Shown: positions 13,919-63,723 of the stretch, one piece after another | Numbering within the stretch: position 1 is the first letter of the stretch | How the letters are laid out: the number at the start of each line of letters is the position of its first letter | Source of the DNA: Octopus vulgaris | Lineage: Eukaryota | Reading direction: 5' to 3' | NCBI GenBank assembly: GCA_951406725.2 | Contig: OX597836.1 | Coordinates: 21,700,001-21,764,000, forward strand | DNA: 64,000 bases | Translations under genes and position numbers: made by a program | Notes under the pieces: generated by a model | Seen by the model: the letters and a program-made list of their open reading frames with translations, nothing else | Told to the model about the DNA's origin: nothing | Database searches by the model: none

Positions 13919-14341
13919 TCTATGTTTGACTTTTGCTTTATGTCTGTACAAGTTGGCTCCAAGTCTCACCCAGAGACCTCAAGAGACAACAGGTTGGAAG
14001 TTCTGTGCCATATATTTGGGGGGGGGGCTGTTGTACTAGTGAGTGTCTAATACATAAAAATAAAAAAAAATAAATAAAAAATGAAAAATAAAAAAAAGTT
14101 TGTTTTAAACCTTGGGATTACATAGAGAGTATTTTGCGTAGGATATGAGCAGTTCCCATGAGCACTATCTTTTGAATTTCTGCCATTTTGGGGTTTCCTG
14201 GTATCTGAGTTAGGTAGCAATCAGTCCCTTTCGCTATCATTCCCAGGGCACCTATGACAACAGGTATTGTTTTAGTCTTCAGCTTCCACATTTTGCTGAT
14301 TTCTATTTCAAGATCTTTATATTTGCTCAGTTTTTGGTAAA
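13919..14341 (-). mobile_element. 5'-truncated R4/Dong-like non-LTR retrotransposon (RLE C-terminus plus 3' UTR)
   Basis: KLSKYKDLEIEISKMWKLKTKTIPVVIGALG...IQKIVLMGTAHILRKILSM*; (AAT)n on both sides when read on the sense strand. Confidence 0.85.
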
Positions 14342-14342
14342 G

Positions 14343-14398
<56 letters not shown>

Positions 14399-17816: not shown

Positions 17817-18242
17817 ATTTGCTTGTCAGTTGTTTGACCTTAACCAGTTGAGCATGTCCCTTAGTGGCTGACGATATGTGCATCTCTGATCACGAGCAGA
17901 AGTAGTGGGGGAGCATCATAGCCATGTGTTGAGAGGGATTCTATGGGGTTTGAATAATTCACCTCTGGAAAATGGGTGGTTCTTTCAACATCCTTAAACA
18001 ACCCTTATTCAGGGACCTTTTGAGCGAGATGGGCTACTCGACCTGAAGAAAATTCTAACCGGGCCCCACTTGCAAGGTCATGCGCTGTTTATCTTGATAT
18101 GAGATCACCATGTCGCGCACATATGGTTGTGATGCATGTGCCTGGTGTACCCTTATCAGACGGGTAGTCATGATGGGTATATTGGGCTTCGTATATTTTA
18201 CCCCAGTGTCACTTTGATGGCATGAACTGCTCTCTCTCACTC
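17817..18242 (+). mobile_element. 5'-truncated copy of the ~560 bp (AAT)n-embedded element
   Basis: Highly similar to the 3' part of 35395-35953 and 41922-42477; ends ctctcactc-(AAT)n. Confidence 0.9.
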
Positions 18243-25857: not shown

Positions 25858-25872
25858 GTAAGATCTTTTTTT

Positions 25873-26852
25873 CTTTCGGATATATGCAAGTGTTTCCGTA
25901 TCGTAAATAATGACTGCAAATGTGTTTAATAATGAAATAAGATTACGATATAGAAAATTTTGCTTTCTTTTAAATGCCTTTAATACTTAATAATAGACGT
26001 CGTATTAAAAATCTTTCGGTTATATGCAAGTGTTTCCGTATCGTCAATAATGACTGCAAATGTGTTTAATAATGAAATAAGATTACGATATAGAAAATTT
26101 TGCTTTCTTTTAAATGCCTTTAATACTTAATAATAGACGTCGTATTAAAAATCTTTCGGTTATATGCAAGTGTTTCCGTATCGTCAATAATGACTGCAAA
26201 TGTGTTTAATAATGAAATAAGATTACGATATAGAAAATTTTGCTTTCTTTTAAATGCCTTTAATACTTAATAATAGACGTCGTATTAAAAATCTTTCGGT
26301 TATATGCAAGTGTTTCCGTATCGTCAATAATGACTGCAAATCTGTTTAACAATGAAATAAGATTACGATATAGAAAATTTTGCTTTCTTTTAAATGCCTT
26401 TAATACTTAATAATAGACGTCGTATTAAAAATCTTTCGGTTATATGCAAGTGTTTCCGTATCGTCAATAATGACTGCAAATGTGTTTAATAATGAAATAA
26501 GATTACGATATAGAAAATTTTGCTTTCTTTTAAATGCCTTTAATACTTAATAATAGACGTCGTATTAAAAATCTTTCGGTTATATGCAAGTGTTTCCGTA
26601 TCGTCAATAATGACTGCAAATGTGTTTAATAATGAAATAAGATTACGATATAGAAAATTTTGCTTTCTTTTAAATGCCTTTAATACTTAATAATAGACGT
26701 CGTATTAAAAATCTTTCGGTTATATGCAAGTGTTTCCGTATCGTCAATAATGACTGCAAATGTGTTTAATAATGAAATAAGATTACGATATAGATAACTT
26801 TGTTTTCTCTTAAATGCCTTTAATACCTTTGTAATAGACGTCGTATTAAAAA
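25873..26852. repeat. Intronic tandem array, 7 x 140 bp, near-identical units
   Basis: tatatgcaag recurs at 25881, 26021, 26161, 26301, 26441, 26581, 26721. Confidence 0.97.
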
Positions 26853-27128
26853 TTTTGATTAAAATGATAACTTTTTTCGATTCAATATTTGGTTTAGAAG
26901 TATATAAACCAGTATAGTAAATATATAAATATAGTAAATATATAATAGTATAGTAAATATATAAGCCAGTATAGTAAATAAAGGAGATAACATGAGGTGG
27001 CTGAGATGACCGAGCATCGAACTTAATATATTTCAATTGCTGTACAACAACTACCAGGAAAACGTTAAGGTTAAACTCAACGACAGAAGACACAGTAGCA
27101 AAGCAGCAATAATAACAGCAACAACAGT

Positions 27129-33088: not shown

Positions 33089-33774
33089 GTTTACACAATG
33101 GAATGATAAAAAAAAAACGGGAAAGAAAGTAAGTGTACACGGTATACACTGAAAAAGAAGGGACGTATGCATAGCATACAAAGGTTAAAAAAGGGTGGCG
33201 GAGCGGGTGATAGAGATGTGGCCCTCCTGATACATGAAGGCCTCTATGGGTAATCGAGGAAACCCATTGTCCGGGATTTATCTGAAACCCCATGTGCAAT
33301 GTTCTCTCCAATTCGTTCGTGCCGTCTCACAGGTCAACACTTAGAGATGTACCATCCACTCTTGCCATTTTCGCAGCTTTCATTCACCTTTCAATAAACT
33401 CACTGGAAGACAGCACTTCCCTCTCCACTCTCACTTTCCTTCATTGATTTCCATAAAGAAGTCAATGAGAGCTCTACCAAAGAGAAACGTATCTGTCCTC
33501 ATGCCTTACAGCCTTGTCCATCAAACAACCCATTTGGCCACAGCCACCAGGCGAAGGAAAATTGCCTTGCCTGTCCGATTGAAGGAGGGCGGCGGTGCAA
33601 TCGTCATTACAGACTCGCCCGACAGACGGATCCGTCGCACACGCGACAGCAGCTGTTCGACATAACCCCACAAGTCAGCAATGCCCGCACACTGAACAAG
33701 GGTGTGCAGAACGGGTTCGTCACTCTGCGCGCACCTCGGCCCGTCTGACAGCACATTTGTGTCTGTAGAGTTTA
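33018..33774 (-). mobile_element. 5'-truncated Tx1/L1-like LINE (ORF2 C-terminal zinc knuckle plus 3' UTR), degraded
   Basis: PRCAQSDEPVLHTLVQC (degenerate CCHC), then RKVRVEREVLSS...MARVDGTSLSVDL* (stop at 33327); 3' tail gaccttgtggccaatgaaagaattt. Confidence 0.75.
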
Positions 33775-33791
33775 TGATAATAATAATAATG

Positions 33792-33864
<73 letters not shown>

Positions 33865-33866
<2 letters not shown>

Positions 33867-34620
33867 GTCGGCATTATAAAATCAAAACCGCTGACAAATG
33901 GTATAAACACCATCCTGAAGCTGTGACTGAGGGAGAAATTGTGTCGATTCTATGGGACTTCCCCGTACAGACCGACAAAACTACAAAAGCTTATAAACCG
34001 GATATTATTATAAAAGATCAGACAAAAAATATGTGTTTATTAATTGACATGAGTATTCCTTGCGATCACAATATAGCGGCGAAAGAATTTGACAAGATTA
34101 GTAAATATAAAGACTTGCTAATAGAAATTGAAAAAATGTGGCATCTCAAGGCGACTACAGTACCAGTGATTGTAGGATCTCTAGGAATGATAAAAAAAGG
34201 TACTGAAACCTATTTGAAAATGATTCCAGGCTTACCATCCATACAGGAAGTGCAAAAAATCGTGTTAACTGGAACGGCTCATGTACTTAGAAGAGCATTA
34301 TCGCTGTGAAAACAACATCCATCCATGAATTTATTAATTTATTAATTTTTAAATACATATTTTATCTGTGAATTTGCGTGTGTAATCTGGGAATGCATAC
34401 AATGAGCTTCTCTACCCTAGGTGTATGGAAAACACTCGGCGAAAAACGGAAGATAATCGCTGTGAAAACAACATCCATCCATGAATTTATTAATTTATTA
34501 ATTCTTGAATACATATTTTATCTGTGAATTTGGGCGTGTAATCTGGGAATGCATACAATGAGCTTCTCTACCCTAGGTGTATGGAAAACACTCGGCGAGA
34601 AACGGAAGAAAATTTGAAAA
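33865..34620 (+). mobile_element. 5'-truncated R4/Dong-like retrotransposon, family 1, with duplicated 3' UTR
   Basis: WYKHHPE...ILWDFPVQTD...KPDIII...LLIDMSIP...KISKYKDL (PD-(D/E)xK RLE); ORF open to 34309; (AAT)n on both sides. Confidence 0.9.
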
Positions 34621-34648
34621 TAATAATAATAACAATAATAACAATGAT

Positions 34649-34721
<73 letters not shown>

Positions 34722-34731
34722 GTAATAATAA

Positions 34732-35320
34732 TATATTCACAGACATGACAGAGTTGGAACCTACATACATTGGAAGCTATGCCAACATTATGGAATAACA
34801 ACAGAAAAAAGATGGTATAGGCACACACCAGAAAAGGTCACAGAAAACGAGAAAGTAACCATACTCTGGGATATGCCGATACACACAGATAGAGAAATTA
34901 AGGCCAACAGACCAGATATAGTTGTCAGAGATCATGAAGAAAAAAAATGCTTTCTAATTGATGTATCAATACCGGCAGATGACAACGTGTCTCTAAAAGA
35001 AATAGAGAAACTCTCAAAATACAAAGACCTGGAAATAGAGGTAACTAGAATGTGGAATCTGAAAACAGAAACAATTCCTATCATAGTAGGTGCATTAGGC
35101 ACGATAAAAAAATATTCAGACAAATACATAACAAAAACACCAGGACTTACAAACACATATAACATACAGAAAATTGCACTACTAGGCACTGCACACATCC
35201 TACGCAGAACACTTTCCATACAATAACCATCAGAGCATCACAACAAATCACAGCACATACCCAAGGCACACAGAGCTGCGCTCGGTAGTGAAGTGAAAGC
35301 ACGCTATGAAAATAAAACTA

Positions 35321-35323
<3 letters not shown>
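34732..35323 (+). mobile_element. 5'-truncated R4/Dong-like retrotransposon, family 2
   Basis: YIHRHDRVGTYIHWKLCQHYG...ILWDMPIHTD...RPDIVV...LIDVSIP...KLSKYKDL; RHD and PD..D..K motifs, no stops to 35226; (AAT)n on both sides. Confidence 0.92.
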
Positions 35324-35394
<71 letters not shown>

Positions 35395-35396
<2 letters not shown>

Positions 35397-35953
35397 GCCC
35401 TGATGCAGTGCCAGGCAGCGGCTCTCGTGGCTTCTGATCTTAACTGATTGGAAGTGTTATCATGTACATTGTTTTGTCTTGGTATAAAAGATGGGCTACA
35501 GTAAATATCCTGCTCAATACCACAGATTTGCTTGTCAGTTGTTTGACCTTAACCAGTTGACCATGTCCCTTAGTGGCTGGCGATATGTGCATCTCTGATC
35601 ACGCGCAGAAGTAGTTGGGGAGCACCATAGCCATGTGTTAAGAAGCATTCTTTGGGGTTTGAATAATTCACCTCTGGAAACATGGGTGTTTCGTTCAACA
35701 TCCTTAAACAACCCTTATTCAGAGACCTTTTGAGCGGCATGGGTTACTCAACCAGAAGAAAATTCTAATTGGGCCCCACCTGCGAGGTTATGTGCTGTTT
35801 ATCTTGATATGAGATCACCATGTCGCGCGCATATGGTTGTGATGCATGTGCCCAGTGTACCCTTATCAGACGGGTAGTCATGATGGGTATATTGGGCTTC
35901 GTATATTTGTACACCCCACTGTCACTTTGATGGCATACACTGCTCTCTCACTC
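35395..35953 (+). mobile_element. ~560 bp non-coding (AAT)n-embedded element, full length
   Basis: Starts atgccctgatgcag, ends ctctcactc; same ends as 41922-42477; strand assigned by analogy with Dong polarity. Confidence 0.88.
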
Positions 35954-36244
35954 AATAATAATAATAATAATAATAATGCTTTCAAATTTTCGCATAAGGC
36001 CAGCAATTGTAAGGGGGGCAGAAGTCGATTACATCACTCCCCCCTATACTTGGCTAGTACTTATTTTATCGACCCTGAAAGGATGAAAGTCAAAGTTGAC
36101 CTTGGCAGCATTTGAACTTAAAACGTTAGAATGTAATGAGTTGCAAGAACGTTAATGACCATTAATTTGAGGGGAGGGGCAAGACAATTGCACACATCCA
36201 GAACTTGACAGGTACTTTACTTTTTTAAAAAATATATGTGCCCT

Positions 36245-41921: not shown

Positions 41922-41923
<2 letters not shown>

Positions 41924-42477
41924 GCCCTGATGCAGTACCAGGCAGTGGCTCTCATGGCTTCTGATCTTAACTGATTGGAAGTGTTATCATGTACATTGTT
42001 TTGTCTTTGTATAAAAGATGGGCTACAGCAAATATTCTGCTCAATACCACATATTTGCTTGTCAGTTGTTTGACCTTAACCAGTTGAGCATGTCCCTTAG
42101 TGGCTGACGATATGTGCATCTCTGATCACGAGCAGAAGTAGTGGGGGAGCACCATAGCCATGTGTTGAGAGGGATTCTTTGGGGTTTGAATAATTCACCT
42201 CTGGAAACATGGGTGGTTCTTTCAACATCCTTAAACAACCCTTATTCAGGGACCTTTTGAGCGGGATGGGCTACTCAACCTGAAGAAAATTCTAACTGGG
42301 CCCCACCTGCAAGGTCATGTGCTGTTTATCTTGATATGAGATCACCATGTCGCGCACATATGGTTGTGATGCATGTGCCTGGTGTACCCTTATCAGACGG
42401 GTAGTCATGATGGGTATATTGGGCTTCGTATATTTTACCCCAGTGTCGCTTTAATGGCATGAACTGCTCTCTCACTC
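41922..42477 (+). mobile_element. ~560 bp non-coding (AAT)n-embedded element, full length
   Basis: Highly similar to 35395-35953; (AAT)n on both sides. Confidence 0.9.
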
Positions 42478-62241: not shown

Positions 62242-62812
62242 TTCAGATATATGCACTTACAGACATACATACGCACAACGCACACACACGCTTTACACTC
62301 TTTGTATTCATATATATATATGTATATATGGAGGGAGGGAGAGAGAGAGAGAAAGTAAAAGAGGGAAAGAGAGAGTGAGAGAGAGAAAGAGAGAGAGAGG
62401 GCGAAGATTGGATGAAAGGATGAAAGAGATTGGAGAAACCGAAGAAAGATAAACAGAAGAGATAATTAAAAATTAAGCCACGAACCGCCAGATCAAGCGA
62501 GAGAAAGGAGGGGGGAGGGTAAATAGTAAAGGAGAGAGAGAAAGAGAGTGAGAGCAGGAGGGGGACGAATGGGTAAACATACCGACAAACTGATACGCAG
62601 ACATACAAGGCAGAAGATTTAAGAAGAAAATGAATAAATAATATATAAACCTTTCCAGTAGCTAGGAAGGTTTAGTAATGAGAAGCTGGTGAAGACAGAG
62701 ATCAGACATGAGTTGAAACAACAGCACCATTGTTAGTGAGGTGGGTTTATTTTCTTCGTTTTTTTTTTTTTGCTGGGGCATTTACTGGTTGTTGCGATTT
62801 TCTATTTTTCCA

Positions 62813-63591
62813 GTTTGGTCGTCTGCTTAATTGAGGGAGAAAGTTCGGTCATTATTGTCCTTAATTGAGGGAGAAAGTTTGGTCGTCTGCTTAATTGAGG
62901 GAGAAAGTTTGGTCGTCTGCTCAATTGAGGGAGAAAGTTTGGTCGTCTGCTTAATTGAAGGAGAAAGTTTGGTCGTCTGCTCAATTGAGGGAGGAAGTTT
63001 GGTCGTCTGCTTAATTGAGGGAGAAAGTTTGGTCGTCTGCTTAATTGAGGGAGAAAGTTTGGTCGTCTGCTTAATTGAGGGAGGAAGTTTGGTCGTCTGC
63101 TCAATTGAGGGAGAAAGTTTGGTCGTCTGCTTAATTGAAGGAGAAAGTTTGGTCGTCTGCTTAATTGAGGGAGAAAGTTTGGTCGTCTGCTTAATTGAGG
63201 GAGAAAGTTTGGTCGTCTGCTTAATTGAGGGAGGAAGTTTGGTCGTCTGCTTAATTGAGGGAGAAAGTTTGGTCGCCTGCTTAATTGAGGGAGGAAGTTT
63301 GGTCGTCTGCTTAATTGAGGGAGGAAGTTTGGTCGTCTGATTAATTGAGGGAGAATGTTTGGTCGTCTGATTAATTGAGGGAGAAAGTTTGGTCGTCTGC
63401 TTAATTGAGGGAGAAAGTTTGGTCGTCTGCTTAATTGAAGGAGGAAGTTTGGTCGTCTGCTTAATTGAGGGAGAAAGTTTGGTCGTCTGCTTAATTGAGG
63501 GAGAAAGTTTGGTCGTCTGCTTAATTGAGGGAGAAAGTTTGGTCGTCTGCTTAATTGAGGGAGGAAGTTTGGTCGTCTGCTTAATTGAGGG
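62813..63591. repeat. Minisatellite, ~26 x 30 bp (gtttggtcgtctgcttaattgagggagaaa)
   Basis: Exact 30 bp period from 62877; one 34 bp variant unit near 62843. Confidence 0.97.
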
Positions 63592-63723
63592 ATCGGAAGT
63601 GGGGATAAAACGGGAAAAGAAATTCAAGAGAGGGAAAAAGATAAAGTGAGAGAAATGAGAAGAGGGAGCAGCGAGGGAGAAGGTGTGGATAGAGGAAATG
63701 AGGTGTATACATATATATATATA

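Follow-up and report, generated by a model that had tools for sequence, protein, structure and literature searches.

The genome of Octopus vulgaris harbours an abundant and long-lived non-autonomous retroposon, a non-coding unit of 556 nt that sits in arrays of the trinucleotide AAT and is here simply called the element. It came to attention in a stretch of 64,000 nucleotides (assembly GCA_951406725.2, contig OX597836.1, positions 21,700,001 to 21,764,000 of the forward strand), referred to throughout as the window. Judging from its target, its strand and the scars at its junctions, all of which agree with those of long interspersed nuclear elements (LINEs) that encode a restriction-like endonuclease (RLE), the element RNA is probably copied in trans into AAT arrays by the reverse transcriptase (RT) and endonuclease of Dong/R4-like LINEs, as a preliminary description of the window had proposed. 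More tentatively, and with rather less than even confidence, we suggest that the element may be a mass-amplified, target-specific animal retroposon that runs on Dong/R4 machinery without a LINE tail, a small-RNA head or a known ribozyme.

Copy number, ends and target of the element

Three copies were recovered in the window where they had first been reported (Table 1). Both full-length copies span element nt 1–556 and start with ATGCCCTGATGCAG directly after (AAT)n, the third copy begins at nt 132, and all three end in CTCTCACTC-(AAT)n. A profile search found no fourth copy in the window. The longest stop-free frame is 59–61 aa, no terminal inverted repeats (TIRs) or other terminal repeats such as long terminal repeats (LTRs) were found in the element, and ARAGORN reported no tRNA in the window, in keeping with the original account of a unit lacking a long open reading frame (ORF), TIRs and an obvious tRNA head. 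With queries of 751 and 216 nt, Rfam returned nothing near its gathering score and, at E ≤ 10, no credible match. The left flank of the truncated copy consists of (AAT)7 followed by an inverted (ATT)6 run. Since (AAT)3+ arrays begin at only 0.03% of the strand positions of the window, the association of the element with AAT is far beyond chance.

The genome (2.8 Gb in 227 contigs) was searched with exact short motifs, so that all copy counts are lower bounds; reversed-motif controls gave 0 matches. The counts drop from the 3′-end towards the 5′-end, with 15,646 matches to the terminal 21-mer, 13,650 to a motif at nt 475–496 and 6,143 to the 5′ 22-mer. The loci of the first 100 matches to the nt 475–496 motif were taken as a sample of copies unselected for length, all from a single contig and including a few segmental duplicates. 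The 3′-end falls at nt 553–556 in 98 of these 100 copies, whereas the 5′-end starts at nt 1–3 in 47, at nt 4–9 in 8, and is scattered over nt 18–464 in the remaining 45. The initial claim of fixed ends therefore stands for the 3′-end and for about half of the 5′-ends, and the genome-wide checks that had been suggested yielded more than 15,000 motif matches and a pile-up of starts at nt 1–3. Copies in the sample have a median identity of 97% to the majority sequence, and those in a wider set of 107 full copies range down to 82–87%. Pieces in DNA contigs of four other organisms, tens of thousands in each, also cover the element.

A trinucleotide array follows 93 of the 100 copies (AAT 88, AAG 3, AAC 2), the other 7 having some other flank, so that the statement that the element occurs only inside (AAT)n was slightly too strong. 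An array also precedes 47 of the 55 full copies, and one copy (locus L059) has (GAA)n on both sides. At the 5′ break of truncated copies an AAT or ATT array is likewise present in 34 of 45 cases. The presence of arrays at random truncation points shows the array to be a target and not merely a tail.

The fixed 3′-end, variable 5′ truncation, absence of coding capacity and absence of LTRs and TIRs are those of a non-autonomous non-LTR retroposon made by target-primed reverse transcription. Neither the 100 sampled copies nor 30 loci selected with the 5′ motif include one that continues upstream into coding sequence, and hence no copy running 5′ into an RT ORF came to light. This and the pile-up at nt 1 (47 of 100 starts at nt 1–3) dispose of the case that had been named as fatal to the original proposal, namely that the element is the randomly 5′-truncated 3′ untranslated region (UTR) of an abundant LINE. 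A minus-strand reading was likewise rejected, as truncations, duplications and the strand of neighbouring LINEs all fit a plus-strand RNA.

Candidate partner LINEs and shared insertion scars

Three RLE LINE families, designated D2, D4 and D1b, were seen full length, and older families as 3′-ends only. D2 is ~4 kb long with an ORF of 1,242 aa (Pfam RVT_1, E 2e-32), and its relatives in PDB are R2 proteins only. The D4 ORF measures ~1,315 aa and that of D1b ~1,235 aa; all 150 of 150 scored matches were identical over 207 aa for D4, and all 150 of 150 were 99–100% identical for D1b. All three families carry YMDD, CCHC knuckle and PD..D..K motifs, by patterns that we take to be diagnostic. On their sequences they are young, intact families present genome-wide. 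An older family, F6, is decayed, with matches mostly at 65–81% identity and many stops, besides the query itself and one match at 88%. By domain layout, rather than by a tree, D2, D4 and D1b belong with R4/Dong, having a single ORF with RT, CCHC and RLE and a (TAA)n target. Protein matches of the RLE neighbours are unnamed or uncharacterised arthropod proteins at ~50% identity. A (TAA)n target has been described for Dong in molluscs and insects (PMC7998251, PMC3812793) and, in the available part of one of these papers, for R4/Dong in most insects, molluscs and cnidarians (PMC7998251).

The element and these LINEs agree in strand and in their scars. An RLE ORF fragment lies within the locus on the same strand as the element in 44 of the 100 sampled copies and on the opposite strand in 2. 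In full-length D2 and D4 the 5′-end is discrete, and its first 19–21 nt are often tandemly repeated, in up to ~10 units of 19–21 nt for D2 and 4–5 units for D4. Comparable repeats are found in the element. Before the full copy at L199 (800–1830, minus strand) stand ~15 tandem units of its first 66–68 nt, shorter repeats of its first bases are found at L024, L030 and L186, and repeats at truncation points at L032 and L050; the 100 copies include 3 with such repeats. Inversions of the 5′-end were observed at L098 and L315. The same arrays, the same strand and the 5′ scars shared with D2 and D4 make copying in trans by RLE LINEs likely. The L199 array has, besides, the appearance of a minisatellite born at a retroposon 5′ junction.

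The element could alternatively have been moved by another RT, for example by a Penelope-like element in the style of a retrozyme or by a LINE with an apurinic/apyrimidinic-type endonuclease and an AAT tail. A Penelope-type hammerhead motif was seen by eye at L027, and the element is not linked to any RLE family by a homologous tail. However, the element has no hammerhead and no habitual tandem or greater-than-unit-length structure, arrays lie on both sides of it, truncation points included, and the strand agreement with RLE LINEs is 44 to 2; we regard this alternative as very improbable. A census of the sequences that precede (AAT)4+ arrays in ~0.6 Mb of element-enriched loci returned as large clusters the element, RLE LINE tails and the head of an opposite-strand short interspersed nuclear element (SINE), and no RTE or Penelope tail cluster was recognised there.

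Joins between element and RLE sequence without an intervening array occur at L038, L106 and L254. At L038 (230–1005) two D2 pieces are followed by element nt 241–556, and at L106 (minus strand, reverse complement 1499–2480) element nt 1–285 precedes pieces of two RLE families. These two loci are AAT-flanked single insertions of three pieces from different RNAs, which either multiple template jumps or deletions could account for; template jumps of this appearance have been reported for R2 (PMC3414825). Fusions of the element to non-RLE DNA are at least as frequent as those to RLE sequence. For this reason the fusions were given little weight, and no single partner was picked out from them.

The missing tail

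Further observations weigh against a simple pair of element and partner LINE. The last 110 nt of the element matched none of six RLE 3′ UTRs (shuffle p 0.31–0.99), the older families being compared at their 3′-ends only, and its first 60 nt matched none of the 5′-ends of D2, D4 and D1b (p 0.2–0.9). As a positive control, the end comparison detected the similarity between the D4 and D1b 5′-ends (0 of 2,000 shuffles). There was no LINE among the first 100 genome matches to the terminal motif. For 78 of these matches the distance to known element matches was as expected (coordinates compared by eye), and the other 22, which were examined, were all element copies, one of them reduced to nt 520–554. 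When 1.15 Mb of LINE-rich loci were searched with the profile, only element pieces and a miniature inverted-repeat transposable element (MITE) were retrieved. It follows from the terminal-motif matches and the profile search that no abundant LINE carries the tail of the element; a rare or extinct one may. Known SINE-like/RLE pairs have a tail in common, and none was detected for the element. No motif of a promoter came to light, and transcription by RNA polymerase III (Pol III) is hard to square with three T4 runs (nt 78, 334 and 512). The homologous 3′ tail that marks a stringent pair of SINE and LINE was thus absent across six RLE 3′ UTRs, and the homology of both ends to an autonomous LINE that marks a short internally deleted element (SIDE) was absent for D2, D4 and D1b.

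These gaps could potentially be explained if the element were a SIDE-like internal deletion, or a UTR, of a rare, extinct or unsampled autonomous RLE family, possibly now carried by related LINEs. R2 SIDEs are on record, as are bipartite non-autonomous LINEs (PMC3414825, PMC5786205), the family is old enough, with copies at 82–87% identity, for a parent to have decayed, and only three RLE families were seen full length. Nevertheless, the 30 loci selected with the 5′ motif include no LINE 5′ UTR and none that reaches upstream into coding sequence, and neither the 100 terminal-motif matches nor the profile search yielded a LINE with this tail. We therefore hold such a parent to be quite unlikely, and continue with the element as a unit copied in trans by RLE LINEs that share no detected sequence with it.

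A predicted hairpin at nt ~456–503 gives the strongest fold among 13 windows of 80 nt (z −2.5) and could be the site recognised by the RT; no covariation was found for it, and the whole 556-nt unit folds like shuffles (z −1.2).

Origin of the 5′-end

Among 123 junctions the commonest form, (AAT)n-AAATGCCC, accounts for 47. Duplicated units, for the most part, begin anew at AATGCCC without an intervening array. On these two grounds the start of the RNA is read as (A)ATGCCC. We lean slightly towards transcription of the element from this start by an internal promoter.

It is less likely that the element is a promoterless passenger that depends on read-through from upstream LINEs or genes, with the cDNA of the upstream (AAU)n annealing to the target array and thereby fixing the 5′ boundary. 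The uniform 5′ junctions of R2 come from target sequence left on its RNA, which counts for this mechanism. Cleavage upstream in R2 has been described (PMC3774820). The lack of a promoter motif in the element points the same way, as does the presence at L030 of one or two AAT-like pieces in the duplicated units. An RLE 3′-end also stands directly upstream more often in full copies (20 of 61) than in truncated ones (5 of 41; Fisher p 0.02, post hoc), in a comparison that left out 21 copies lacking an upstream array. Against read-through, the duplicated units mostly restart without an array, and copies in (GAA)n, although from two independent loci only, have no AAT at the 5′ junction. The divergence of the upstream LINE piece and that of the element are, moreover, uncorrelated (rho 0.08, n 18; 4 of 18 within 1%). 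Co-insertion of the element with upstream LINE pieces was rejected on these ages.

A self-cleaving, retrozyme-like RNA had been put forward in the preliminary description as the source of the precise 5′-end, and this part of it was not borne out. Silkmoth Dong self-cleaves at its 5′ junction through a ribozyme resembling that of hepatitis delta virus (HDV) (PMC3774820). At its 5′-end the element is sharply bounded and lacks the extra G of some D2 and D4 junctions, a G that may reflect a cap; both points speak weakly for a new ribozyme. However, the element RNA appears to begin with A rather than G. A strict HDV-topology descriptor, composed of motifs that we take to be characteristic of the fold, found nothing in the element on either strand or in D2, D4 or D1b; with synthetic controls only, it recovered 20 of 20 folds and matched 3–5 of 40 shuffles. 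A loose version matched 39–40 of 40 shuffles and was discarded as uninformative. Rfam reported no ribozyme in the element at E ≤ 10 and was empty for the D2 and D4 5′-ends. The hammerhead-type motif CUGANGA is present at nt 183 and 359 only, far from the end, and the pairing of a hammerhead with tandem or greater-than-unit-length copies that typifies non-LTR retrozymes was not found. Shuffled sequences fold as well as the first 80 nt (z −0.5). Over 34 copies the covariation term was −1.1 of −57 kcal/mol, with no pair compensated in more than one sequence, in what is a weak test, as most differences between copies are probably post-insertion decay. D2 and D4 also have discrete 5′-ends without a detectable HDV-like fold, so that a precise 5′-end does not require such a ribozyme. 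The ribozyme reading is thus unsupported by the sequence, and a new ribozyme of some other kind appears decidedly doubtful.

Discrete 5′-ends without a detectable HDV-like ribozyme were observed at loci of D2 (L081, L088–L100), D4 (L242–L249) and D1b (L332–L335), unlike the situation in silkmoth Dong. The 5′ UTRs of D4 and D1b are long and AT-rich (~0.9 kb and more than 1 kb, respectively) and have a short motif in common near the 5′-end.

The head of a conventional SINE, derived from tRNA, 5S, 7SL or small nuclear RNA (snRNA) and furnished with Pol III boxes, was not found either. ARAGORN and Rfam were empty, no B box matched, and no tRNA-type head was found, a very degenerate head not having been compared with the tRNA set of the genome. 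An idea by eye of a 5S-derived head was dropped, since its score of 16–21 against the 5S of the genome itself was reached by 251–703 of 1,000 shuffles. A U2-like head, presumed from a likeness seen by eye, had no Rfam match, and the 5S loci held no snRNA genes for comparison. At L231–L233 an old copy has its first 138 nt duplicated and is present three times through locus duplication. The joint of this head dimer has 3 matches in the genome, all from the one duplicated locus, and is also present in contigs of three runs; as an anti-ribozyme test the supposed head-dimer subfamily was thus uninformative.

Neighbouring repeats

Element nt 103–272 are also part of a 489-bp MITE family with ~120-nt imperfect inverted ends and TA flanks (L201–L230, L272–L301; for example L205:1115–1617). 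It has at least 295 copies by exact matches of one motif, at ~91% identity to its own majority sequence. The majority sequences of MITE and element are ~97% identical over the segment, differing at ~5 positions. Among 30 MITE copies chosen by a motif outside it, 28 retain all or part of the segment, and no form without the segment could be established. The MITE copies are not AAT-flanked, which indicates that nt 103–272 alone do not direct AAT targeting. Our guess is that the MITE captured the segment from an older copy of the element.

Positions 33749–35953 of the window mark a cluster of four head-to-tail insertions in a single array system, in the order D1 end, D2 end, element and opposite-strand SINE. 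The D1 end contains a duplicated 160-bp 3′ UTR at 34297–34613. The SINE, which is very common and tRNA-headed by eye, lies at 35972–36129 and at many other loci. It shares the arrays, is oriented oppositely and carries (ATT)n on the sense strand. An RLE-like 3′-end from L079:2771 onward runs into sequence similar to this SINE. Two young tandem arrays are found elsewhere in the window, at 25872–26856 and 62812–63600, with ~140-bp units (93–98% identity) and 30-bp units open in three frames.

Table 1. Features of the element and its RLE neighbours in the window.
Feature	Position	Strand	Remarks
Full-length element copy	35395..35953	+	559 bp; ~95% identity to family majority sequence
Second full-length element copy	41922..42477	+	556 bp
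5′-truncated element copy	17817..18242	+	Begins at element nt 132
(AAT)23 array, probable target	35324..35394	+	Between D2 LINE 3′-end and element
(AAT)8 array at fixed 3′ junction	35954..35977	+	
Element nt 103–272, also inside 489-bp TA-flanked MITE family	35497..35666	+	
Predicted 3′ hairpin, element nt ~456–503	35850..35897	+	Candidate RT-recognition site
D2 RLE LINE 3′-end, 5′-truncated (endonuclease domain and 3′ UTR)	34732..35323	+	Candidate partner
D1, second RLE LINE family, 3′-end, 5′-truncated	33869..34618	+	Tandemly duplicated 3′ UTR; same array cluster
D4 RLE LINE 3′-end, 5′-truncated	13920..14345	−	AAT-flanked on own strand

Proposed mechanism and significance

We propose that an internal promoter would drive transcription of the element from a start of its own, (A)ATGCCC, and that a D2, D4 or D1b protein would bind the RNA close to the 3′-end without requiring a homologous tail, through the shape of the RNA or through relaxed recognition. 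The endonuclease would nick the (ATT)n strand, and the RT would copy from the last base of the element by target-primed reverse transcription. It would reach the 5′-end of the RNA in about half of the cases and stop early in the others, and at the 5′-end it would sometimes recopy the first 14–68 nt several times.

Recognition of a partner without a common tail is unexpected. Those passengers of RLE LINEs that are known, few in number, retain part of the LINE; for the element, with the same target and the same scars, no sequence in common with the LINEs examined was detected. If the proposal is true, the RLE RTs of this lineage would recognise cargo RNA by shape or loosely, unlike the stringent R2, and the first 100 nt of the element would contain a promoter or 5′-processing signal of an undescribed type. 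R2-like RLE proteins, which are believed to require a 3′ UTR of their own, are under study for writing genes from RNA templates. The element would then be a natural 556-nt cargo that defines the requirements of such an enzyme for inserting foreign RNA into AAT repeats. As three intact candidate enzymes and numerous natural variants of the template exist, the element makes testable what a Dong-type RT recognises in an RNA. The element is also a long-lived resident of the AAT arrays of this genome that has sequence in common with a MITE.

Comparison with known systems

A literature search found no description of the element or of a non-autonomous Dong partner; Repbase, Dfam, SINEBase and the repeat library of PMC13282606 lay outside this search, and the element may therefore already stand in a catalogue among unclassified SINEs or unknown repeats. 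Papers on octopus repeats, in the portions available, record Dong-R4 as abundant or active alongside many unclassified SINEs, and describe no such element (PMC8967140, PMC13282606, PMC9115989). The main text of another paper, as far as available, has no occurrence of Dong or RLE (PMC11481361). Kojima, in the accessible part of the work, names RTE, Ingi, Vingi and R2 only as sources of bipartite non-autonomous LINEs (PMC5786205). The remark that non-autonomous partners of RLE elements are rarely described is therefore fair, although precedents exist in the SINE-like/R4 pairs of Entamoeba and in the R2 SIDEs.

Pol III SINEs, as portrayed in the portions available, resemble the element in length, copy number, subfamily structure, fixed 3′-end and dependence on a LINE (PMC5786205, PMC11481361). 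The element differs from them in that neither a head nor a B box nor a tail of LINE origin was detected, and in its three internal T4 runs and target specificity. The non-LTR retrozymes of animals are likewise short non-coding retroelements, but the hammerheads, tandem organisation and Penelope-like link given for them in the accessible text do not apply to the element (10.64898/2026.07.22.740005).

Dong, of the R4 clade, is like the element in its (TAA)n target, insertion on the same strand and 5′ truncation (PMC7998251, PMC3812793, PMC3774820, each as far as available). The element is non-coding, and the 5′ HDV-like ribozyme of silkmoth Dong was detected neither in D2, D4 and D1b nor in the element. 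The R2 SIDEs and R2/R1 hybrid SIDEs of Drosophila are, like the element, non-autonomous, target-specific, copied by a site-specific LINE and not tRNA-headed (PMC3414825). According to the part of that paper available, SIDEs keep the 5′ HDV-like ribozyme and 3′ UTR of the LINE and are confined to rDNA, whereas the element has no detected homology or ribozyme.

Precedents for a SINE-like partner of an R4 element are found in Entamoeba, in EhSINE1/EhLSINE1 with EhLINE1 (EhRLE1), and in EdSINE1 and R4-N1_ED with R4-1_ED (PMC2996970, PMC3747384). In the available portions of these papers, the Entamoeba elements share with ours a length of ~500–600 bp, the lack of coding capacity, the absence of an identified small-RNA head, a promoter listed as unknown and an R4/RLE partner. 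EhSINE1 has a ~70 bp 3′-end in common with its LINE, inserts at T-rich sites with no fixed target and generates target-site duplications. Unlike EhSINE1, the octopus element has no tail in common with the LINEs tested, inserts into a microsatellite, and has reached more than 15,000 motif matches in a genome of animal size.
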